A DNA stretch of 64,000 nucleotides, taken from IMG/VR virus record IMGVR_UViG_3300046170_000391; one strand, given 5' to 3'. The DNA is from a virus. Under the pieces are notes generated by a model. It did no database searches. It was not told where the DNA came from and saw only the letters and a list, made by a program, of their open reading frames with translations. A program made the translations under genes and the position numbers. Below are positions 1,362-45,965 of the stretch, piece after piece. Every line of letters begins with the position of its first letter. The stretch's first letter is position 1.

Positions 1362-2534
1362 TTAAAGATTGGGCTTTGCTCTGTTGCGATATTTGCAACC
1401 TTTATACATTTTTTGTTGGTAATGAACTAGATCACCATTTTGAAGTTCGCTTGCGTCTGTAGAAAGCAAGTTAACAAACGGGATAGACTCATTAGGATCA
1501 CGTGCTACAAACACTTCCTCTTCATCATCCTTTTCCATTTCGTCTTCAATAGCTTCCTCGGCTTCAGCTTTGACTTCAACATCATCAGTTTCAGTTTTTT
1601 CTTCAACTGCTTCGTCATCGTCTTTTGTTTCAATGACTTCTTCAGTCTCTGTTTTCACTTCAACCTCCATATCAGCTGTTTCTTCGATGACTTCTTCAGT
1701 CTTCTCCTGAACAGCTTCCTCAGATTTTGAGTTACTCATTGCTTCCTCCTCGGTTGGAGACATTGGACGCTCGTTTACAACCTCGCCCTCCTCCATATTA
1801 TGAATTGGAACACCCAACATTGTAATATCATGTGTGTGGCCTTCGGCCTCAAGCATAACACCTCCAATGATTTTGTGAGCATGGTTAGCCATATGCGATG
1901 CGTATGTGGTTACACCATTGCCAGCATCATCCATTTCTACGGTATGATAATGACCTTCGCTCACGTCAGTAATTCCAGCTTTAATTTTACGCATCATCTT
2001 GATTTCATTTTCGTCAGCCTCTTTAAAAGACTTTTTAAACTCATTAAATTCATCATCTGAATCGAATGATTTACGAATTGAGAATAGTGAATCTTGGTTA
2101 CAAGGGACAGAAACAACAGAAATTTCTAGAAGTTCAACATCAGTAATCATCATTGAGTCATCTTCCCTGTTATATTTGCCATCCTTAACACGAAAACCTA
2201 CACTAAAACTTTTTAAAGCACCATCACGAATCAGGGTTTGTACACCATGAGTCTTTTCTGCTGCTTCGCTAACTGCGCCTTCAACAAAGATACCTTTTTT
2301 ATCGACTGTAATTTTATCAATACGACCGATAGGACAATCATGCTTATGTTGGAATAACATAACAGGATTTTTTCTAAAGTTCTCAACGCCTTTTGCCCAG
2401 GCCTCAGCAGTAACAATATCTCCAGCACGATCTTTTGCTGTTGTATTTGCATAACCTGCAATCTTGAGAGCTTTAGTTCCTTTTTTAACGCTCTTTGTTT
2501 CGAAAGCACTATTTAGATAAAATGTTTTATTCAT
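1362..2534 (-). CDS. Prohead protease (HK97 family) with long acidic C-terminal extension
   Basis: IAGYANTTAKDRAGDIV, LFQH, LKSFSVGF, ELLEISVVSVPCNQDSLF motifs. Confidence 0.92.
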   Translation of the reverse strand: MNKTFYLNSAFETKSVKKGTKALKIAGYANTTAKDRAGDIVTAEAWAKGVENFRKNPVMLFQHKHDCPIGRIDKITVDKKGIFVEGAVSEAAEKTHGVQTLIRDGALKSFSVGFRVKDGKYNREDDSMMITDVELLEISVVSVPCNQDSLFSIRKSFDSDDEFNEFKKSFKEADENEIKMMRKIKAGITDVSEGHYHTVEMDDAGNGVTTYASHMANHAHKIIGGVMLEAEGHTHDITMLGVPIHNMEEGEVVNERPMSPTEEEAMSNSKSEEAVQEKTEEVIEETADMEVEVKTETEEVIETKDDDEAVEEKTETDDVEVKAEAEEAIEDEMEKDDEEEVFVARDPNESIPFVNLLSTDASELQNGDLVHYQQKMYKGCKYRNRAKPNL

Positions 2535-3787
2535 CAGTTACTTCCTCGTTTTCTGATTCCCCTTCTAGGGGTCTTCCACCTTGAGTAGCATCAGTCGCGC
2601 TACCTGTGATGTTTTGTGGTACTCTTATACTATCATTTCCTTCTAATTTTGGAAATCTTAATCCTTCACGAGCTTCATTTGGGGTTATAATTCCAGTGTT
2701 TACCAGAGTAGAGTAGTAAACTGCCTGCGTTCTGTTATCTGGTTGTAGTGCTGGGACTGATAATTTATCAGGGCGTATGGTAACTCCACCATTAAAAAAG
2801 TGCTGAAAAGCTGAACAAAATTGATTTAATATAGGCAGTACAGTATGTAAGTAAAATAATTTTTGATTGGCTTCAATATTAGCGTTATTACCAGATTTTA
2901 ACAATACATAAGGAACTCCGATAGCTTTTGCCATATCAATTTGAATTCTTTCGATTGAGTTTTCAAAGTCCAGTTGGTCAAAGTTCACTGTAGAAAATTT
3001 ATCTATTTTTAAACCACCATCTAAAATAGCAGGATTTCGAGCACCATCAAAAATGGTAGTATAAGTAGAACGCCATGCCTCTAAGAGTCTTTGTTTTACG
3101 CGTTGCGATAGAATATTATCTGTAGTTAAAACAAACCCCGGTAGGGCATTGTTTTTAAAAAATTGTCTTTGAAATTTTATCATGTAATAATAAACTTCCA
3201 TAAGGCCTAGAATAGATTTTAGCTTTGATACTCCCCGAAAAATTGAATTTTCGTTTTCAGAGTAGACATGAATAATTTCATGAGGTTCAAAACGTATTGA
3301 TTCAGATTTACGAGTTTGTTTACCTGCTCCAAAACCATAAAAATCTTGAGATTGTTGATTATGAATTAAATAATTATAGTGAGAAACAAAAGTTTGAGAG
3401 TCAGGAACTACTTCAACATCATTAGCAGGTAGCAAGAATAAATCCTGCCCATCATAGTAAAAAAAAGGCGTTACCATCTAACATGAAATCTAAAAAAGCT
3501 CGCCTAAACATACGTACCCTATCTTCAAAAGGGTTAGGCTTGTAATTCAACATCCTATTTACTTTTTTTGCAGGGGAAGTGCCTTCAACTATCAAGGGTA
3601 ACTCAACACATGAATTGATAACCATCTCAACAGATCTGTGAACTACTTCAATCTCTCTATAAGCTTGTTCAAAATCTACAATAGTTTCTGGCGAAGCATA
3701 AGGCTCTAAGGAAGCAATTGATGGTTGAGCGGGATTTAATTTTTGAGCCACCCAACCTCTTAAGCCTAATTTTATATCATCTGCCAT
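2527..3787 (-). CDS. Portal protein, split by a 1-nt indel in a homopolymer near 3460
   Basis: ORFs 3452-3787 and 2527-3477 join as ...DFMLDGNAFF/YYDG...; PNPF, FFKNNALPG, GIITPNEARE motifs. Confidence 0.9.
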
Positions 3788-4154
3788 TTTTTGCCCTTTG
3801 AATATTCAACCAATTTTTTATTTTATCGGATAAGTGATTTGAGTACCTTTGTCCGTAAATGTTATGAAGCTGTTTATGATGAGTTGCACACAAAGTATAC
3901 AAATTCTCATGACTTAGATCAGAATAACAGTCTTGAGAAAATTGAACTCTAAGAGTGTTTATAGTCTCAACATCTTCAATCTTAATTATTTTATTTTTAT
4001 CGCACCAATTATTAAAAAGTTCACTTACGCTGTAAAGGTGGTGAAGCTCTAGACTTTCAGTAGACCCACAAATATAACATTCGTCTCTAAGTTTATAATC
4101 CTTTTTAATGAAATCTCTAATATATTTTATAGGAATGCGCTTTAATTTATTCAC
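3777..4154 (-). CDS. T5-like nicking HNH endonuclease
   Basis: KYIRD...CYICG...LELHH...TLCATHH; position between portal and TerL as in T5. Confidence 0.75.
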   Translation of the reverse strand: MNKLKRIPIKYIRDFIKKDYKLRDECYICGSTESLELHHLYSVSELFNNWCDKNKIIKIEDVETINTLRVQFSQDCYSDLSHENLYTLCATHHKQLHNIYGQRYSNHLSDKIKNWLNIQRAKNGR

Positions 4155-4825
4155 TTTACTACACTTTCATTAGCTGTCCAAGAGTTATTTTTAAATTTTT
4201 CTAGTATGTTCCATCTCATCTTAAAATGATTTGGATTTTTGTTCAGACCAACGCGGTCATCAGGCAGATTCATAACTTTTCCTGATACAGTAGGTAGAAG
4301 AGAGACATTCAATTTATCCTTTAGTAAGTAAGAAACTATTATATCATCGCCTCTTTCTGGATACCCTATTTTTTCTATATCTGCTTTTATGAGATTAAGA
4401 GAAGATTGTTTTACTAGAATAACAGATCCTACTAAAAAATCAACGAAGGAATCTTCGCACCAGTGATCAGTAAGTTCTTGATAGGAAGTAGCACTAGAAA
4501 CATTTGACTTACCGTATATCCCGCATATGTTTGTATCAAGTTTTAACATTTTTTTTACAAGGGAGGGGTGAGGTAGTAAATCATCGTCAATAATAAGTTT
4601 ATATTCCTCATCATACTCAAAACATCTGTGCCATCTCTCCATGCAATACCAATTCTTTTTATTATTCAAAACTTCTACAGGTTGGGAAAAATAAGGGTAA
4701 GGGTTATCTGGATTATTATTTACAATAGTGATAGGAAAAAGTTCTTTAAAAACATTCATTATGGTAGCAACATTATTTTGTCTTTTGTAGCTTAAAACTA
4801 TGACACGTAAACTTGAATTAAGCAT
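4151..4825 (-). CDS. Putative GT-A fold glycosyltransferase
   Basis: VIVLSYKR N-terminus, IIDDD (DxD) motif, GDDI motif. Confidence 0.55.
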   Translation of the reverse strand: MLNSSLRVIVLSYKRQNNVATIMNVFKELFPITIVNNNPDNPYPYFSQPVEVLNNKKNWYCMERWHRCFEYDEEYKLIIDDDLLPHPSLVKKMLKLDTNICGIYGKSNVSSATSYQELTDHWCEDSFVDFLVGSVILVKQSSLNLIKADIEKIGYPERGDDIIVSYLLKDKLNVSLLPTVSGKVMNLPDDRVGLNKNPNHFKMRWNILEKFKNNSWTANESVVK

Positions 4826-6065
4826 AGATAGATATGTTACTCATTTTTGAATGTGTGTAGAGAGCGTATCTAACGGCATCACATGGGTGAGATGCCCAAT
4901 CGTGAACGGGCTTTGGCGTTTCAGTATTAGGATTCCATTTATAAGAGCTCATAGAAGAAAACGTATGAGAAGCTCCCATAGTATCAAAAAATAGTTTATC
5001 TGCTTGTATTAAAACTTGCACAAAGTTAATACCGTCATTAACCGATTTGATCGCGTTTTCACAATATATATCATAATCATATGCAAAGTCAGCCTTTACC
5101 TGCTGCGCCGCAGAATCTATGTATATTGAGTCAATATTCCATTCATCAATTTTTTCTTGAATAGCAGAAGCGAGCTCAGAAGTAGTTGATTCTTTAGATA
5201 TGTACTCATCAATTATAAAGTAATTATAACCGTCAAATCCTATTACAACAAATACATTTTCATCTCTATACCCTACATCTAACCCTGCAATAACTTCTGC
5301 AAAACGCTCTCCTACATAATCATTTACGTGTTTTGCCTCGTCTAAATCTTCATATATTTGTGATTCTGTAGTTGTCCATTCACATTCATACTCTTGAGCA
5401 AATAAAGCTCGCGTGATTGATCTACGTGCTTCTTCAATGTCTTTTTCTGAAAGTAGAGGGTTAGATCTCCAGCTGTGAAGTGAAGATCCCCATTCTTCGT
5501 ACTCCTGATCGTCTCCTCGTAAGAAATAATTATATAAGTAATTACCCTTACCACGAGGAGTAGATATCCATAAGCATCTCGAATCTTTAAAGGTAGATAG
5601 TGCTGGCCTTAAATCTCTAGTAAAATATTCATCATTAGGTATAATAGCAGCTTCATCGACTATAAGTAGATTAGCGGCGCGACCCACAAGAGAGTCTCGA
5701 TTGTTAGCAGAAAGAAGTCTGAAAATAGAGCCATTAATTAACTTAACAACTTTGTCTTTTTGATTAAATTTATCTACTTCAATATCTAATTGTTTTATAA
5801 GATCGGTAACATAGTCCCAGATAATAGATGAGAGTGAAAAATTAGGAGCCACTACCATTACTTGTTGTCCGGGCTCTAAAAGCTTTGCAAAAGCTAAAAT
5901 AGCTGCTGCATAAGACTTACCAGTACGGCGTGCAGCGATATGAACGAAAAATCTGCTCTCGTTTAGTCCTTCGATCATAGCTTTTTGGGATTCATTAAAT
6001 TGAACGGGAGTGGGTAGCTTAGTCAATAATTTATCTATATTTAATCGAAAGAATGTGTCTGACAT
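4818..6065 (-). CDS. terL: Terminase large subunit
   Basis: Walker A (AARRTGKS), Walker B (LLIVDEAA), ISTPRG, nuclease GLDVG and HPCDAVRY. Confidence 0.95.
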   Translation of the reverse strand: MSDTFFRLNIDKLLTKLPTPVQFNESQKAMIEGLNESRFFVHIAARRTGKSYAAAILAFAKLLEPGQQVMVVAPNFSLSSIIWDYVTDLIKQLDIEVDKFNQKDKVVKLINGSIFRLLSANNRDSLVGRAANLLIVDEAAIIPNDEYFTRDLRPALSTFKDSRCLWISTPRGKGNYLYNYFLRGDDQEYEEWGSSLHSWRSNPLLSEKDIEEARRSITRALFAQEYECEWTTTESQIYEDLDEAKHVNDYVGERFAEVIAGLDVGYRDENVFVVIGFDGYNYFIIDEYISKESTTSELASAIQEKIDEWNIDSIYIDSAAQQVKADFAYDYDIYCENAIKSVNDGINFVQVLIQADKLFFDTMGASHTFSSMSSYKWNPNTETPKPVHDWASHPCDAVRYALYTHSKMSNISIYA

Positions 6066-13832: not shown

Positions 13833-14831
13833 ATGCAAGGACAGAGAACAGATATAGACCAATCAAATAAAGCTTTTTTACAAAGGATAAAAAATAAATG
13901 TATACTCAATGAAAATAGTTGTTGGATATGGCAAGGGACTTGTAACCAACGTGGTAGACCTATGGTATCTTGGAAAGGTATGCAAGGCTTAGTATACAGA
14001 TACACATATCTTGCTAAACACGGTAAACCTATTAAAAAAGGACTTTATGCGTGCCACTCTTGTGACGAGAAGCTGTGTTGTAATCCAGATCATATATTTG
14101 AAGGAACTAATAGAGATAATCAAATAGACTTTATGATAAAGAATGAGGGAATTATACATAATGGTTTTAATACCTATGGAGATAAGTACTGGGATGGAAG
14201 ACCAAAGATAGAATTAAAATTAATGATACCTTCAAATCTATCGGATGAAGAACGCTTTAAATGGTATAGGGATAAATATTGTCATCATGACGAAAATGGT
14301 TGTTGGATCTGGTTAAGAGAAGTTGGAGAAGACGGTTATGGTCGACTTAAGTATAGATCAAAGAAACATCAATCTCATAGAGTGATGTGGATGTTAGCTA
14401 ATGATAAAACTCCAGAAGACTTAGAACAGCTTAAAAAAGACAACCTGGTAGTAGGGCATGTATGCCCAGTAGAAGGAGCGCCTAACAAAGCTTGTTGTAA
14501 TCCTGACCATTTAGAAATCAGAACTCGATCACAAAATGGATTAGATACAAGAAGCTACTCAAAGCAAAGAAAGGAAGAACTGTACACAGACGAACAACTT
14601 TACGAGTGGCTTCACATTTATGAATTTGTAATAAATGAGTTGGGAGAAAATCATAAACTACTTAAATCGGCTAATGGAGGTAAGAATTACAAATTAATAG
14701 CAGATGGATTAATAGATTTAGGACTCGTTAATGAAAATATACGCTGTCAGTATCTAAAAGATTTATTAAGAGGTAAAAGTGCAAAACATATTCATAATGA
14801 GTTTTTTGATTGGACTCCATTATGGAAGTGA
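13833..14831 (+). CDS. Homing endonuclease with two HNH / zinc-loop domains
   Basis: Twice CWIW...(H/Y)R...H.C...CCNPDH....T..N. Confidence 0.85.
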   Translation: MQGQRTDIDQSNKAFLQRIKNKCILNENSCWIWQGTCNQRGRPMVSWKGMQGLVYRYTYLAKHGKPIKKGLYACHSCDEKLCCNPDHIFEGTNRDNQIDFMIKNEGIIHNGFNTYGDKYWDGRPKIELKLMIPSNLSDEERFKWYRDKYCHHDENGCWIWLREVGEDGYGRLKYRSKKHQSHRVMWMLANDKTPEDLEQLKKDNLVVGHVCPVEGAPNKACCNPDHLEIRTRSQNGLDTRSYSKQRKEELYTDEQLYEWLHIYEFVINELGENHKLLKSANGGKNYKLIADGLIDLGLVNENIRCQYLKDLLRGKSAKHIHNEFFDWTPLWK

Positions 14832-19204: not shown

Positions 19205-19504
19205 ATGAAAGCTCAAAACTACACTCCAGAACTCACTGCCTCAATCATCGCTGACTATCAGGCTGGCGTTGACGTTGCCGAAATCGCAGCATCTATCGAA
19301 AAGTCAATTCGCTCTGTTCGCTCAAAATTGGTACGCGAGGGCGTTTATATTGCCCAGCCAAAAGTTGCGGCTCGCAAATCTGATGAGCCAACCAAAAAAG
19401 AATTGCTGATCGAATTGGAATCAGTTGCCCCATTTTCGGTCAATGGATTCATGGGTGCGACAAAACCCGCGATTATGGATTTGATCGCTCACTTCAAATC
19501 CTAA
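19205..19504 (+). CDS. T5 A2-like DNA-binding protein, copy 1
   Basis: NYT.E...SIRSVRSKLVREGVY...KKELL...F.GATK; SVRSKL motif recalled from T5 A2. Confidence 0.7.
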   Translation: MKAQNYTPELTASIIADYQAGVDVAEIAASIEKSIRSVRSKLVREGVYIAQPKVAARKSDEPTKKELLIELESVAPFSVNGFMGATKPAIMDLIAHFKS

Positions 19505-19756: not shown

Positions 19757-20740
19757 GCCTCGCAATTTATTGGCACGACAGGTTCGCGGGATGCAACCAC
19801 GGGTCAAACCATCGAAAAAGATTTATCGGAGGAAACCGAAAAATGAAAAAGCGCGAACTGATTAAACGCATTAGTTGTTACACCACTGTTTCGCCAATTA
19901 TGGCAATTCGGTTGTGCTGTTGGTCTGAGGCTAGATTGCAGCGCGTTCTTAAAAATATTAAAGCTATCAATGAGGTTTACAATGACACAAACAATAATCA
20001 AATCAAAGCGTTCTTTGGCAACGCTAAATAATAAACGCAACTTTCAGGGTCTAAAGCTAAAAGAAAGGCCGAAAAAGCCAGCTAAAACAAAGAGTTAGAG
20101 GGCGGCGGCCGGTGAATCTTAGGTAAGCTAACATACTGATATCATTGAATAATTAAAAGTGACCGGCGGCCAAACCCCTTTTTGTCAATGAAAACAATAC
20201 ATTGCGTGCTGCAGTTAAACCATGAAAATTCAATAAAAACAACAGGGTAGGCGTGTCAATAGAAAACTTACAGGCCAAAGTTAAGACGGACACCAGGACT
20301 GTTATGTTATAACGTATCATATTGCGTTTTAACGTGTTACAACATTAATACACACTTAGCAAGCATTCCTACCATGCGATATCAAGAGTAAGCGCTATCC
20401 AGCGCCAGTAGTAGTTCGACGATTGTCAAGTAAAAAGTCAATTCGAATGCATCTTTTTGTACGATTGAAAGCAAGTCTAAGTGCGCCAGCGCCAGTGAAA
20501 AGGCGATTGTCAAGTACAAAATCGCACAAACTAGGATAAAATTTTTATCTAAAAGTCATGTCGTTTCTGATTGACACTAGCCCATCATTCTGATAAACTC
20601 TCTTTACAAATTCAGAGAACGACCATTTTTCTGATTGTAGGCGAAAGCCAGAAACATTCACTTTTGACTTGCTTCTTGGCTAAAAATAGCGTATTATCTT
20701 TATATCAAATGAAAACAGAAACCCATAGGAGATATTCATT

Positions 20741-21049
20741 ATGGCTGCAACTATCAAAAACGTAAACTATACCGCCGAACTTACCGCAGCAATCGTTGAG
20801 CAGTACCAGCAGGGTACTGACGTGGACGCAATCGCTGATTCTATCGGTAAAAGCATCCGTTCGGTGCGTTCAAAGCTGGTACGCGAAGGTGTGTACGTAG
20901 CGAAGCCGAAGGTCGCTGCAAAGCGCGATATGGGTCCAACTAAGAAGGAACTTCTTAAGGACTTAGAAGCTACTGGTTTTGAGGTAGCTGGTTTCGAGGG
21001 GGCTACTAAAGAGGCCATCGTCCGCCTCTTGGGACACTTCGCGAACTAA
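20741..21049 (+). CDS. T5 A2-like DNA-binding protein, copy 2
   Basis: Paralogue of 19205; AGGAG RBS; TTGCTT..TATTAT promoter at about 20688-20720. Confidence 0.7.
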   Translation: MAATIKNVNYTAELTAAIVEQYQQGTDVDAIADSIGKSIRSVRSKLVREGVYVAKPKVAAKRDMGPTKKELLKDLEATGFEVAGFEGATKEAIVRLLGHFAN

Positions 21050-21070
21050 GACACTCGTCAGAGTGTTTGG

Positions 21071-21100
21071 AGGGACAGGCTTCGGTCTGTCCCTTTTTTT
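21071..21100 (+). terminator. Intrinsic terminator
   Basis: agggacaggc-ttcg-gtctgtccct followed by a T run. Confidence 0.9.
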
Positions 21101-22128
21101 ATGAACAAAATCAAGCACTTACATCTACATTATGTGCTCAACGCACCAGTACAAGTACGAAGTATAATTTCAATTGCTTGTGCACCGCTGCGCCAGTGCA
21201 AAGTCAACCATAAAGTCACATCGCTTGCTAGCATTAGTGTAAATAAATCAAAAGTCCATAGTCTATTTCCAAAACAACAAGTCATATATTCAAGTCTGGT
21301 CTAAACCCCTACCCACCCTGGTATAATAACACATAAAAACAGCTCTGCGCAAGGCTGCACTGGCTCCCTACGGTCGCCACAGTCCAATAAACAGTAAAAA
21401 TAATGTGTTATATGGTAAAAAATGGTAAAATAGCAAAGAAATAGCTGTTTTTACGTAGTAAAACAGACAAATAAGTGCATTTACGGAGTAAAATAGCTCC
21501 CCAATAAACCAGAAAATGATTGACGAGAGGGTCTGCTTGGCAGCGCTATGCGAACTCCGTTCGCGGGCTGTGCGAGAAGAATTCCGATGTAGGGAGGCAA
21601 TCATATCACTTCGTGATACAACTGTCCCAAGCACACACGCTCCGCGTGGAATCGAAATAGTGAGTATGTTTATGGAATATAGTATAAAGTGAACGAACGA
21701 AGTTCGATAGCTGGTACAGCCTCTATGCTCCCTACGGTCGCTTATGTTATCTATGTACAAAGGCTATATACACGGCTACGCAACGTGGTGTAAAAGCTGT
21801 GTAACATATGTAATAGCTATGTAATCGCTGTTACAAAAAAAAAGACGCTGTGTAATAGCTAAACAGCGGCTTCGTTTGCGTTCTGTATACAAATAATAGC
21901 AGAATATTTGTACATTGTCAACGGGTTGTATTGGGTAATTTTGTGAAATGAGAAGTTTAGAAATGACGAATTAGTTACTCTTTATTCATGTATACATTGT
22001 ACTATAATTGGTATGGATTTCAACAGTTAGGTTCATACTTTTTGTATAGTTGCTAAAGACTGTAGTGTGAAAAATGCTACAAAAATTTCTCTCTGTAGCA
22101 TTGGTAGGATATAATTTGGTTGATTAGA

Positions 22129-29207: not shown

Positions 29208-29931
29208 GTTTCAAGAAGTCGAATACGATCCTTTTGATTCATGTAGTATTCTAGAGCGCACCACAAAGTTTGAATCTCGTCACAGATAGCAGCATCTTTT
29301 TCTGGAAGCAGAGATAACTGAATTAAATCATCTGCGATAACACGTTTAACAACCTCTAATTGTTGCTCTGAAGTAAGTGCAATAGTTGCCATTAGTGTAC
29401 TGTGCCTCGTGTATACATTTGGTGTAGATCATGTTGTATTTGATACCATTCGCTTACGGCGGCTTCAAACCCGATAGTACCCTCACCAAACTCAAGCTGT
29501 GCTTTAATGATGAAATCTGGTTCTGCGACATTAAAGTGGTCACACGCAAAAATTTCACCTTCTAATACTGCTTCTTTGATTTTACCCATTATACTCTATC
29601 TCCCATCATTGCGTCATTAATTTCAGCAGATATCATATACTCATGCTCATCTTCCTCCATCTCAGAGGCAGCATCATACGCAAATTTATAAACATAACGC
29701 TTGATAGCAAGTTGTCCAAGAGCAGACTCGATAGCATCCCAATCATAAGCATATTCTGCTCTTTTGAGACGATCTTCTAGTTCAGATACTTGATATGCAA
29801 AAGTTTCCACAACAGGAAAAAGTTGAGTTGAAGTGGTGCAGTTGCGAATAATTGTAATGTCGTGGTTCATTGTCATGCCTATCTCCTCATTTTCTGTAAA
29901 CAGTATATCAAATATAGGACTAAAACGCAAG

Positions 29932-30612
29932 AAGGGAGTGAACTACGTTTGTCCACTCCCTCCACGAGCATTTAGATCGTGATGATCAATCAATAGGATC
30001 AACTCCGTGCCAGACAAGGTGTAAGGTGCGCTCCCCACATTGGCTTGTTGACTCTAGCTTGAGATTTTGCTTTCTCCTTGGTTGGATGCACGTTATTGTG
30101 CAATTCGTGTATAAAGTCGGAACTAAACACACTGACCTGTATGGAAGGCTAAACCCTTGGTTGTCTGGTTAGGCCAACCTAGAAGCCTCTTAGACACCGA
30201 CTACTCCGAATAGTCAGTACCCGTTTGATGATGATCTCTCATTTTAATGTCTTAACCCAAAGGTTCTACACCTCTATGAGAGTGATGACAGCCACCAGCC
30301 TCGCCTGTCACCGTGAAGGCACGATACACCGTGTGATTCCTTCCCCGACTCTCAGTTAGTTTATCCACACTGAGACACTGTGGCGGGGGTAGCTAACCCC
30401 CTTTACAGAGCAGAGCCTGGTTATATACCCAGGATGCAAGTTGGCGCTTGTAGTATCGAATTAACTGCATACCAACCGATGAGTTAAACTAAATACCCGA
30501 CCCTACCGAAGTAGTTTGTTACATAGTGCTACGCGCGCACAGCCTGGTATTTGTTTTTTCTACTCAGCCTTGCAACGCTTTACAGCCAACGGCACTGAGT
30601 AGATAGTAGTAG
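29932..30612 (-). ncRNA. Candidate large structured ncRNA A (about 680 nt)
   Basis: No ORF of 60 aa or more; GC-richer than flanks; many nested helices; ends in AGGGAGTG..CACTCCCT hairpin. Confidence 0.65.
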
Positions 30613-30615
30613 GTC

Positions 30616-30933
30616 TTAGTGCGCTACTACACCCATCAAACGAGTTAGTGCGTCTTTCGTTGCACCCTCGAACCCAGTAACATCAAAGCCTTGAGCTTCA
30701 ATATCACGCAGGATTTCTTTCTTAGAAGGGCCATCCTGCTTTGCGGCGGACTTTTTAGGAGATGCCACATATGCTCCCTCGCGAACGAGCTTGGAACGGA
30801 CAGAACGAACAGTTTTGTCCATTGATTCAGCAATCTGGTCAAGACCATCGTTGCCGAGTTCATTATACATTTCGATCATAGTATTGACCATTTCCGCAGT
30901 ATAATTTGCAGATTTTAGAGTAGCTTCAGCCAT
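30616..30933 (-). CDS. T5 A2-like DNA-binding protein, copy 3
   Basis: NYTAEM...RSVRSKLVREGAY...KKEIL...FEGATK; own TTGCTT..TATTAT promoter at about 31005-31036. Confidence 0.7.
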   Translation of the reverse strand: MAEATLKSANYTAEMVNTMIEMYNELGNDGLDQIAESMDKTVRSVRSKLVREGAYVASPKKSAAKQDGPSKKEILRDIEAQGFDVTGFEGATKDALTRLMGVVAH

Positions 30934-31044
30934 AATTCACCTCGATTAGCTCTGAAACGTGATGGCAATAGTCAGAGGCATTGCCGTTCCCTCATTCAAT
31001 AAATACATAATATCAAATAAATAACCTATAAGCAATTCAAAAAT

Positions 31045-31198
31045 CATGGGGAAGACTGTGTTCTCTACTAGCGAAGGTTGTTTTGAATGGTGCCTAGTGC
31101 TTAACACATCGTGGGCTTCTCTTGCGTTCGATACTGACAGGACTTCCCCTGAGACTTTGCGGAGGGTTCTTTAGAGTCGGTTATCCCTTACCTCAACG
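31045..31198 (-). ncRNA. Candidate small structured RNA B (about 150 nt)
   Basis: Own promoter at about 31207-31236; no RBS/ORF; GGGGAAG/CTTCCCC, TGTGTT/AACACA, ACTAG/CTAGT helices. Confidence 0.5.
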
Positions 31199-31254
31199 AC
31201 ATATAGATAATACGAAATATTTAAGTAAAAAGCAAACAGAATGTTTAGTTAGAT

Positions 31255-31742
31255 TCCAACACAGCCCCCACACCCGCCTGTTGAATGAGCCTTCTTCAAA
31301 CGAGTGAAAGAGATTGACTTTGACTACCCCCGTTGGTAGAAAAAGAACTCAATACCCAAAGCAAGACCCTTACCGTTTCGGGGAGCTACAACACGTCGCT
31401 GGTAGGCGACAGGCGACGGGAGCTCACCCAGAAAAAGGTGGGGATGTTTTTTACATCGTTTCCCCTTGCCCCTCAGAGCCGATGGCACGGTTGCGCGTTG
31501 TGCAATGCGCCTACTCTGGATATATTTACAAGCATCGAGTAGGTTTGGCTTGGGAGTCGCAAGTGGTGCCTCACTTACCTTATCGCGGTAAACGGCTTCT
31601 TTCACCCATGAGCGTGGGACAGATAAGTTACAGGCTGAGACGCTTTCCGTGACTCCGTTGGATCATTAACCGAATTTAACTTGCGCAGTGCTTTCCACAA
31701 GGGTAGCAGTACCTGCTCGGAGGATGATGCCTCAACTCATCT
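31255..31742 (-). ncRNA. Candidate large structured ncRNA C (about 490 nt)
   Basis: Own promoter (TTGCTC..TATTAT, about 31752-31780); GC-rich; near-continuous hairpins. Confidence 0.65.
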
Positions 31743-32065
31743 TGTATATACATAATATCGAAAAATTTAGAAAAGAGCAACAGCAAAGTGAAATTATTAA
31801 GAGTTGCTCGACTTATTTATTTATGGTTTTTAATCATCTCTTGGTAGCGCAAGACTACCTTCTCGTCTCTCAGGTGACAACCTGAAAAAAGCCATATAAA
31901 ACGTTCTTTCCAGTTTGCTTTGTGTGATATACCATTAGGTTCAATCACTTTAAGAGTAAAAAACTTGCTTATCATAGATTTGCTCCTTTTTCGTTCAAGA
32001 GATTAAATATATCTGAAATCAGAGCAGAAAGCAATTTTTAATTAAAAATGATTACAGTTCAATAA

Positions 32066-45734: not shown

Positions 45735-45808
45735 TGGCAGAGGATCAAGGAATTGAACCCTGTCTTGCTGGGTTGGAGCCAGCTGTGCTACCGTAACACT
45801 TATCCTCT
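45735..45808 (-). tRNA. tRNA-Trp(CCA)
   Basis: Cloverleaf AGAGGAT..ATCCTCT, loop CTCCAAC, GTTCAA, encoded CCA. Confidence 0.92.
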
Positions 45809-45812
45809 ATTT

Positions 45813-45887
45813 TGGAGCGGGTAGACGGAATCGAACCGACATCCTCAGCTTGGAAGGCTGTGATAATTGCCATTATACTATACCCGC
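45813..45887 (-). tRNA. tRNA-Gly(TCC)
   Basis: GCGGGTA..TACCCGC, loop CTTCCAA, GTTCGA, CCA. Confidence 0.93.
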
Positions 45888-45888
45888 A

Positions 45889-45965
45889 TGGACGCCCTTG
45901 AGAGACTCGAACTCCCGACCTTTTGGTTCGTAGCCAAATGCTCTAATCCACTGAGCTAAAGAGCG
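45889..45965 (-). tRNA. tRNA-Arg(ACG)
   Basis: TAGCTCAGTGGATTAGAGC D arm, loop CTACGAA, GTTCGA, CCA. Confidence 0.92.

Follow-up and report, generated by a model that had tools for sequence, protein, structure and literature searches.

Three conserved structured RNA families in a tRNA-associated island of uncultured marine T5-like phages

A noncoding region behind three promoters

We analysed a 64,000-nucleotide (nt) stretch of viral DNA (IMG/VR record IMGVR_UViG_3300046170_000391; hereafter the window), in which a preliminary description made from the letters of the sequence had proposed a cluster of separately transcribed structured noncoding RNAs around an additional paralogue of an A2 gene. 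The window is part of an uncultured marine phage and carries genes for terminase, portal and protease/capsid, and three transfer RNA (tRNA) genes at 45735-45965. The large terminase is ~40% identical to the terminases of T5-like phages. The region of interest, positions 29922-31780 on the minus strand, consists of ~1.3 kb of GC-rich sequence without an open reading frame (ORF) and one 105-aa gene, A2-like gene copy 3. It holds three RNAs, designated RNA1, RNA2 and RNA3, which are real, well-conserved and previously undescribed RNA families absent from the Rfam database. The features of the locus are collected in Table 1.

The GC content of the RNA region was 0.45-0.52, compared to ~0.36 in its flanks, and the only ORFs present in the RNA stretches were chance ORFs of GC-rich sequence. 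These values bear out the observation that ~1.3 kb lacks a credible ORF and is richer in GC than the surrounding DNA. Homologues of the RNA stretches differed from one another by insertions and deletions (indels) of 1-2 nt, and no frame was conserved among them, indicating that the region is noncoding.

Three exact matches to the pattern TTGCTY-N17-TATTAT were found on the minus strand, ahead of RNA1 (P1), RNA2 (P2) and the A2-like gene with RNA3 (P3). All three had been described before as evenly placed promoters; the promoters stand, but the even placement does not, since P1 and P2 are 545 bp apart and P2 and P3 200 bp. When up to one mismatch was allowed, the pattern occurred 12 times in the window compared to 3.5 expected, and none of 100 shuffles reached 12. 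A fourth exact match, TTGCTT-N17-TATTAT at 20669-20697 on the plus strand, lies ahead of A2-like paralogue 2. Among the relatives described below (contigs are given by L numbers), the -10 box of P1 is kept in diverged members as TATTAT, TAATAT or TATACT, and P2 reads TTGCWT-N17-TATACT in most members and is unrecognisable in those of the L005 type. The pattern TTGCTY-N17-TATTAT is the phage's own sigma-70-type promoter class, and three of its members face noncoding stretches of the minus strand.

The first two transcripts had also been said to begin with the same heptamer, GTTGAGG. The heptamer is indeed present in both, at 31736-31730 in RNA1 and at 31197-31191 in RNA2, but as a common start it is not conserved in relatives: the RNA1 site reads GAGATGAGG, and the RNA2 site, which falls within a pseudoknot, reads GTTGAGG, GTTTACGG, GTTTCGG or GTTCAGAGG.

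Conserved structures of RNA1 and RNA2

The consensus structure of RNA1 was computed with RNAalifold from 12 sequences of 61-99% identity and has 16 helices with 88 base pairs in total; compensatory double changes occur at 24 of these pairs. It is divided into a 5' domain of ~350 nt, which extends through helix 11, and a 3' domain of ~170 nt with helices 12-16. The proportion of paired alignment cells was 97%, compared to 38-47% when the partners were slid by 1-3 columns, and the observed covariation was reached by none of 500 column shuffles. Cells with G.U pairs numbered 156 and those with A.C only 5. RNA1 lacks a terminator of its own, none having been found 3' of it in the window, so that its transcription probably runs on into RNA2.

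RNA2 begins with a 5' H-type pseudoknot, which is followed by a long irregular hairpin. In the window, the pseudoknot stems are GUCG/CGAC (S1) and GG(UA)AGGG/CCCUCC (S2). The structure emerged from the more distant members, in which S1 also occurs as GAAG/CUUC, AGUG/CACU, GUAG/CUAC and GAUG/CAUC, and S2 as AAGG/CCUU and AUGG/CCAU. The hairpin is closed by CAAAGUC paired to GAUUUU of the terminal 3' U-run, and this A-tract/U-tract helix looks as if it also served as the terminator. The structure comprises 44 pairs including the pseudoknot, with 94.8% of cells paired (38-52% when slid), 13 covarying pairs (1-3 when slid), and 30 G.U cells compared to 7 A.C cells. RNA2 is ~97% identical among relatives whose A2-like protein is only 75% identical. 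A covariation scan for intermolecular helices between RNA1 and RNA2 found none above the null, the candidates numbering 8 vs 10, 18 vs 16 and 47 vs 43.

Modular organisation of RNA3

The structured sequence of about 680 nt that had been noticed directly after the A2-like gene corresponds to RNA3, which measures ~690 nt in the window and 505-915 nt in relatives. RNA3 folded better than shuffled sequences (minimum free energy (MFE) z -3.8) and contains at least six hairpins with compensatory changes; 1-nt indels occur among close relatives. Its layout is that of a variable modular 5' part joined to a conserved 3' domain.

At its 5' end, RNA3 is joined to the A2-like gene by a hairpin around the stop codon of that gene (the stop-codon hairpin), in which a synonymous GTA to GTG change is offset by a U to C change on the opposite arm (L005, L044, L057, L066 and L073). 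An optional module, GAGUCGGGG...GGCGAGGYUGGUGGC, is missing in eight contigs (L035, L036, L037, L038, L039, L041, L048 and L068), and it was found without the A2-like gene in a second lineage, lineage B (L082 and L079). A further hairpin module of 48 nt is missing from L002-L004, which are otherwise 93-98% identical, and represents a single-module presence/absence polymorphism among close relatives.

The conserved 3' domain has 60 pairs, of which 21 covary (14 sequences). The proportion of paired cells was 96.6%, compared to 40-44% when slid, and G.U cells outnumbered A.C cells by 72 to 7. The domain ends in an intrinsic terminator formed by a hairpin at 29963-29931 and a T-run. Its Alifold energy was -51.3 on the given strand compared to -34.2 on the opposite strand, and RNAalifold energies favoured the minus-strand transcript for both RNA1 and RNA3. 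The large excess of G.U over A.C cells, together with these energies, indicates that the structures belong to the minus-strand transcript.

The general hallmarks of structured noncoding RNAs were present at the locus: compensatory changes above controls (0 of 500 shuffles; 95-97% of cells paired vs 38-52% when slid), strand-specific G.U pairs and no conserved frame. The preliminary description had named a lack of covariation among homologues and a conserved reading frame among the findings that would speak against its proposal of structured noncoding RNAs. Covariation was found in all three stretches, and no conserved reading frame was found; the three are structured noncoding RNAs of the minus strand, each behind a conserved promoter.

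Absence from known RNA families

Rfam 15 was searched with the whole window at the gathering score, and with the RNA region and each RNA alone at E ≤ 10. The RNA region gave no match at the gathering score, and the few matches in or near it at E ≤ 10 (to eukaryotic small nucleolar RNAs, viral elements and similar families) were due to chance. Searched singly, RNA1 and RNA2 gave no match and RNA3 gave no credible one. These results agree with the initial impression that the RNAs belonged to no recognisable family. Covariance models of 6S RNA, transfer-messenger RNA (tmRNA) and signal recognition particle RNA gave no match, and ARAGORN made no tmRNA call. RNase P RNA (RF00010/RF00011) was considered as a candidate and rejected, as there was no covariance-model match in either gene order and the RNA2 segment that resembles its helix P4 varies. 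Literature searches turned up no account of RNA1-3.

Relatives, insertions and a second lineage

Relatives were gathered by protein anchors, by DNA patterns derived from conserved blocks and by one metagenome scan. The first viral-contig pattern for the RNA3 core returned only five contigs that were already known, and L072, a contig from the metagenome scan, was a chance pattern match and was dropped. The same block was found in ~50 distinct marine viral or metagenome contigs. The order up52-RNA1-RNA2-A2-like-RNA3-dn95 was shared by ~35 distinct contigs, and insertions occurred at unit junctions only, indicating that the units are separate. A phage collection was searched with the region (blastn) and with the A2-like protein (tblastn, 1e-3); neither gave a match, and no isolate there carries the module. 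Pattern scans for RNA1 and RNA2 in 185,579 prokaryote (bacterial and archaeal) species genomes gave 0 matches, indicating that these RNAs are neither host-derived nor carried by sampled prophages.

In several relatives, other RNAs lie within the block. A tRNA-Met is embedded in RNA3 of L057 and L073, and in L057 it is followed by a manA RNA (60.8 bits; gathering score 55.2) and then by a second tRNA-like element. The latter is a tRNA-model match at L057:1709-1780 (+) with 34.5 bits (gathering score 29), for which ARAGORN makes no call; it may be a degenerate tRNA or a tRNA-like element. A tRNA directly follows RNA2 in L041, L045, L048 and L066, where a cassette of tRNA and an ORF of ~200-218 aa lies between RNA2 and the A2-like gene (L041:190-887, L045:599-1342, L048:1399-2110 and L066:2113-2858). 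A similar insertion between RNA2 and the A2-like gene was seen in L005, L055 and L059, in which a tRNA was not detected or not checked. The junction ORFs (~200 aa) were considered as homing endonucleases, and this assignment was rejected, as no Pfam family matched.

Protein genes are inserted right after RNA1 in L004, L042, L054 and L071. The insertion in L071 (oriented 1884-5660) is a 4-kb block between RNA1 and RNA2 that contains an up265-like gene, a DegT-type aminotransferase gene and a radical-SAM/SPASM gene. Genes related to this block sit upstream of RNA1 in the window, so that the RNA island borders a mobile modification operon.

A scan with the RNA1 motif revealed the second lineage, lineage B, comprising L074, L076, L079, L080, L082 and L084. 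Here RNA2 precedes RNA1, each has its own TTGCTW-N17-TAWNAT promoter, and the pair lies directly downstream of 4-11 tRNA genes on the same strand. In L082, RNA1 is reduced to its 5' part of ~350 nt, and manA (61.3 bits) replaces the 3' domain. The RNA3 module lies further on, past RNA1 and manA; there is no sense ORF of at least 60 aa over 1.4 kb, and 5.5 kb separate the locus from the closest A2-like gene. In L076 and L079, the pseudoknot domain of RNA2 occurs once more, as an isolated copy some hundreds of nt beyond the first. In the contigs of both lineages in which both were detected, RNA1 and RNA2 are adjacent, in either order, or have nothing but inserted genes between them. The locus is an island associated with tRNAs, the RNA modules of which are exchanged among phage lineages. 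What had been put forward as a candidate for an undescribed system is better described as a modular, tRNA-associated RNA island that in relatives also holds manA and tRNAs.

Table 1. Features of the RNA island in the window and manA RNAs in two related contigs
Feature	Position	Strand	Basis or remark
P1, RNA1 promoter, TTGCTC-N17-TATTAT	31752..31780	-	exact pattern match
RNA1, ~490 nt, many helices	31250..31745	-	covariation, conserved structure
P2, RNA2 promoter, TTGCTT-N17-TATTAT	31207..31235	-	exact pattern match
RNA2, ~160 nt	31039..31200	-	pseudoknot and hairpin, covariation
P3, promoter of A2-like gene and RNA3, TTGCTT-N17-TATTAT	31007..31035	-	exact match; conserved in relatives
Leader hairpin GGCAAU...AUUGCC ahead of A2-like start codon	30964..30985	-	conserved
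A2-like gene copy 3, 105 aa; a basic linker joins two small helical domains	30616..30933	-	phrog_1725 match
Stop-codon hairpin GUAGUAG...CUACUAC, joining A2-like gene to RNA3	30606..30630	-	in all lineage-A relatives
RNA3, ~690 nt, modular	29922..30615	-	co-transcribed with A2-like gene, from its stop codon to terminator
Optional RNA3 module GAGUCGGGG...GGCGAGGYUGGUGGC	30292..30349	-	two hairpins covary
Optional 48-nt hairpin module CUCUCAU...AUGAGAG	30236..30283	-	in window, L063 and L073
RNA3 conserved 3' domain	29924..30237	-	CAAG/CUUG closure; intrinsic terminator end
manA RNA (RF01745)	L057:1385-1554	+	60.8 bits
manA RNA (RF01745)	L082:692-861	-	61.3 bits

The A2-like gene

The gene behind P3 had been described as an extra A2-like paralogue, and this assignment held. 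Two paralogues of copy 3 lie in the window, at 19205-19492 and 20747-21046. The protein matched phrog_1725, annotated as 'DNA binding protein', with an E value of 2.2e-7, and comparison of the family profile with T5 A2 (YP_006834.1) by hhalign aligned the N-terminal 56 columns with a probability of 94% (E 1e-7). The N-terminal domain is thus homologous to that of T5 A2, including the SVRSKL motif. The alignment is limited to these 56 columns, and tblastn to the phage collection was empty at 1e-3. The number of genes also differs, with three paralogues here compared to the single A2 gene annotated in the examined T5 pre-early region. The AlphaFold2 model of the A2-like protein reached a pLDDT (predicted local distance difference test) score of 85.7; a comparison with the PDB gave no significant match, and the best weak matches (E ~0.6-1) were mostly helix-turn-helix (HTH) DNA binders. 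The leader hairpin ahead of the start codon has a compensating variant, GGAAC...GUUCC, in L005.

The synteny of the RNAs with the A2 paralogue, which had been suggested as a point to examine, was present in lineage A, the lineage of the window, but not in lineage B. We infer that the A2-like gene is no obligatory partner of the RNAs but an island passenger or neighbour.

Around the other paralogues, ORF-poor stretches at 20040-20740 and 21050-22100 flank A2-like paralogue 2, near which a strong terminator-like hairpin is located at ~21062-21095. These two stretches gave no Rfam match and showed no similarity to RNA1-3. A 332-aa protein encoded at 13833-14831 (+), in a block of plus-strand genes that lies upstream of these paralogues, has two HNH-endonuclease-type matches (phrog_1872 and phrog_826).

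Discussion

In the mechanism that we propose, the three promoters would drive minus-strand transcripts of RNA1, of RNA2 and of the A2-like gene with RNA3. RNA3 would ride on the A2-like transcript, with the stop-codon hairpin, the exchangeable modules and the 3' domain with its strong terminator. With moderate confidence, we read the locus as an island of conserved structured RNAs that belongs to a lineage of uncultured marine T5-like phages, and the RNAs of which may act in trans in the manner of GOLLD, ROOL and manA. On this reading, RNA1-3 would be stable trans-acting RNAs, as are those phage-encoded, tRNA-island-associated, self-folding RNAs, which have been seen, where tested, to assemble by themselves into RNA-only multimers or cages; RNA1-3 would probably be tied to the investment of the phage in tRNAs and translation. 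The reading is suggested by the contents of the corresponding slots in relatives, which hold tRNA-Met, other tRNAs and true manA, and by the replacement of the RNA1 3' domain by manA. Because of the tRNA context, the target of RNA1-3 would most likely be the translation apparatus or the tRNA pool.

Several points weigh against this reading. Compared to shuffles, the MFE values of RNA1 (z -1.1) and RNA2 (z +0.65) are unexceptional, and the case for structure in these two RNAs comes instead from covariation. The structures were predicted on the same strand as that on which the pairs were counted, which inflates the G.U counts somewhat. In lineage A, RNA3 always adjoins the A2-like gene through the conserved stop-codon hairpin, and a role in cis is possible. 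The window shows no homology to GOLLD, ROOL or manA in Rfam to E ≤ 10, so that the likeness to them is one of functional analogy by context only.

Other explanations account for parts of these observations. RNA3 might be a polycistronic precursor from which host RNase P, RNase E or RNase III releases several small stable RNAs, together with any tRNAs that it contains; we assign this explanation a limited but real chance. The functional units would then be the modules and not the 690-nt whole, in an arrangement resembling the tRNA cluster of T4 and its stable RNAs, species 1 and 2. RNase P would excise a tRNA lying inside RNA3, and tRNA-Met, the second tRNA-like element and manA are embedded there (L057, L073). 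The modules are gained and lost independently among relatives, and the MFE fold of RNA3 is a chain of local hairpins. The 3' domain, however, is closed by the long-range CAAG/CUUG helix and contains nested covarying long-range helices, which points to a larger folded unit. It is quite unlikely that the RNAs act in cis, RNA3 as a long 3' untranslated region (3'UTR) with a stabilising effect on the A2-like mRNA or, through the stop-codon hairpin, control over its translation, and RNA1 as a leader for downstream sequence. In all contigs of lineage A, the stop codon of the A2-like gene is followed immediately by RNA3, and covariation is seen in the junction hairpin; RNA1 lacks a terminator and is followed directly by protein genes in L004, L042, L054 and L071. 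Nevertheless, lineage B has the RNA3 module, RNA1 and RNA2 with no A2-like gene beside them, only RNA2 comes after RNA1 in the window, and a 3'UTR of 500-900 nt with ~100 conserved pairs exceeds what mRNA stabilisation needs. That the RNAs are decoys or sponges titrating a host factor (a defence sensor, RNA polymerase, Hfq, CsrA or ribosomes) appears improbable. RNA2 would be the likeliest sponge, being a rod with conserved internal loops in the early region behind strong promoters, and its ~97% identity, compared to ~75% for neighbouring genes, fits constraint by a conserved partner; yet neither RNA2 nor the others matched 6S, CsrB-type or other known sponge RNAs, and there is no array of repeated GGA or similar motifs.

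The preliminary description had further suggested a ribonucleoprotein (RNP) formed with the A2-like protein. The gene and the RNAs are tightly linked in lineage A, copy 3 is the only A2-like paralogue flanked by RNAs, and its protein has a basic linker. The results nevertheless make it very unlikely that a phage RNP is formed by binding of copy 3 to any of the RNAs: in lineage B, RNA2, RNA1 and the RNA3 module are kept with no A2-like gene within 5 kb, in seven contigs RNA2 and the gene are parted by insertions of ~900 nt, the N-terminal domain shares homology with T5 A2, a DNA-binding protein, and HTH DNA binders predominate among the weak structural matches. We regard as highly improbable the idea that RNA1 and RNA2 are two pieces of one ribozyme, for example a divergent RNase P-like enzyme for phage tRNAs. 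The two RNAs are adjacent in either order, often beside tRNA arrays, and an RNA2 helix, GGGGAAGUCC...GUCUUCCCC, recalls helix P4 of RNase P by eye; in bacterial RNase P RNA the conserved P4 segments are GGAAAGUCC and ACAGAA. The GGGGAAGUCC segment is, however, not conserved, as L079 reads GAGCGAGUGCU; neither order gave a match to RNase P or any other Rfam family at E ≤ 10, and the scan for intermolecular helices was no better than the null. A DNA-level element (an origin, a packaging site or a protein-binding array) or a degraded coding region has a negligible chance of explaining the locus. Inverted repeats are numerous in the region, and it lacks an ORF, but the pairing is strand-specific with G.U cells far exceeding A.C cells, an asymmetry that already contradicts this explanation; in addition, long-range nested helices and a pseudoknot covary, promoters and terminators all point in one direction, and indels are not multiples of three.

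Returning to trans-acting RNAs of the GOLLD, ROOL and manA kind, RNA1 and RNA2 might be an obligate self-assembling pair that, with RNA3 modules, builds an RNA-only particle capturing or presenting tRNAs or ribosomes in the course of infection. We put this forward tentatively and consider it rather doubtful. If true, the RNA1/RNA2 particle, with an RNA1 3' domain interchangeable with manA, would add a further architectural class to those of GOLLD, ROOL and manA. To our knowledge, large and highly conserved bacterial or phage RNAs without a known function are rare, and the locus adds three families (a ~490-nt RNA, a ~160-nt RNA that contains a pseudoknot, and a modular RNA of 500-900 nt) across dozens of marine phage contigs. 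The swapping of RNA modules with manA and tRNAs in one island offers a comparative handle on function and provides constructs for structural work. For manA, first reported as an element of 5'UTRs, the island is a natural setting that speaks against the original riboswitch reading. True manA in noncoding islands beside tRNAs (L057 and L082) fits RNA cages better than the riboswitch proposal.

Comparison with known systems

GOLLD, ROOL, OLE and manA have been revealed by recent cryo-electron microscopy as RNA-only assemblies of a previously unseen kind, and the GOLLD multimer is an RNA-only 14-mer nanocage. GOLLD and ROOL are phage RNAs that lie near tRNA islands and form nanocages; in GOLLD, the 3' region is conserved and the 5' region variable, and the linker sometimes contains a tRNA, while ROOL is large, with multiple pseudoknots, occurs in phages and prophages near tRNA islands and has no known protein partner (bioRxiv 10.1101/2024.12.08.627333). 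The manA RNAs form closed RNA-only 8-, 10- and 60-mers (bioRxiv 10.64898/2026.07.01.735769).

In size and genomic setting, the RNAs of the locus are comparable to GOLLD/ROOL-class RNAs, as had been proposed. Like GOLLD (RF01998), RNA3 is phage-encoded, richly structured and several hundred nt long, has a conserved 3' and a variable 5' part, lies in a tRNA-associated island, and holds a tRNA inside in L057 and L073; unlike GOLLD, it shares its transcript with a protein gene in this lineage, and it has no covariance-model match at E ≤ 10. RNA1 resembles ROOL (RF03087) in its size (~490 nt) and its tRNA-adjacent setting, whereas RNA1, RNA2 and RNA3 have no match to the ROOL model at E ≤ 10, and hosts and habitat differ, the RNAs here belonging to marine T5-like phages. 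The relation to manA (RF01745) is one of shared location and origin: manA is found in the same islands, inside RNA3 of L057 and directly after the RNA1 5' domain of L082, and is likewise of marine/phage origin. In contrast, the window contains no manA match, RNA1-3 are separate families, and the setting here is not a 5'UTR.

Phage T4 carries a tRNA cluster with the stable species 1 and 2 RNAs, of unknown function, which are processed from common transcripts. The T4 cluster and the present island have in common that tRNAs and stable RNAs are clustered in a lytic phage. The RNAs described here, in contrast, are much larger and more conserved, and RNA1 and RNA2 have their own promoters.

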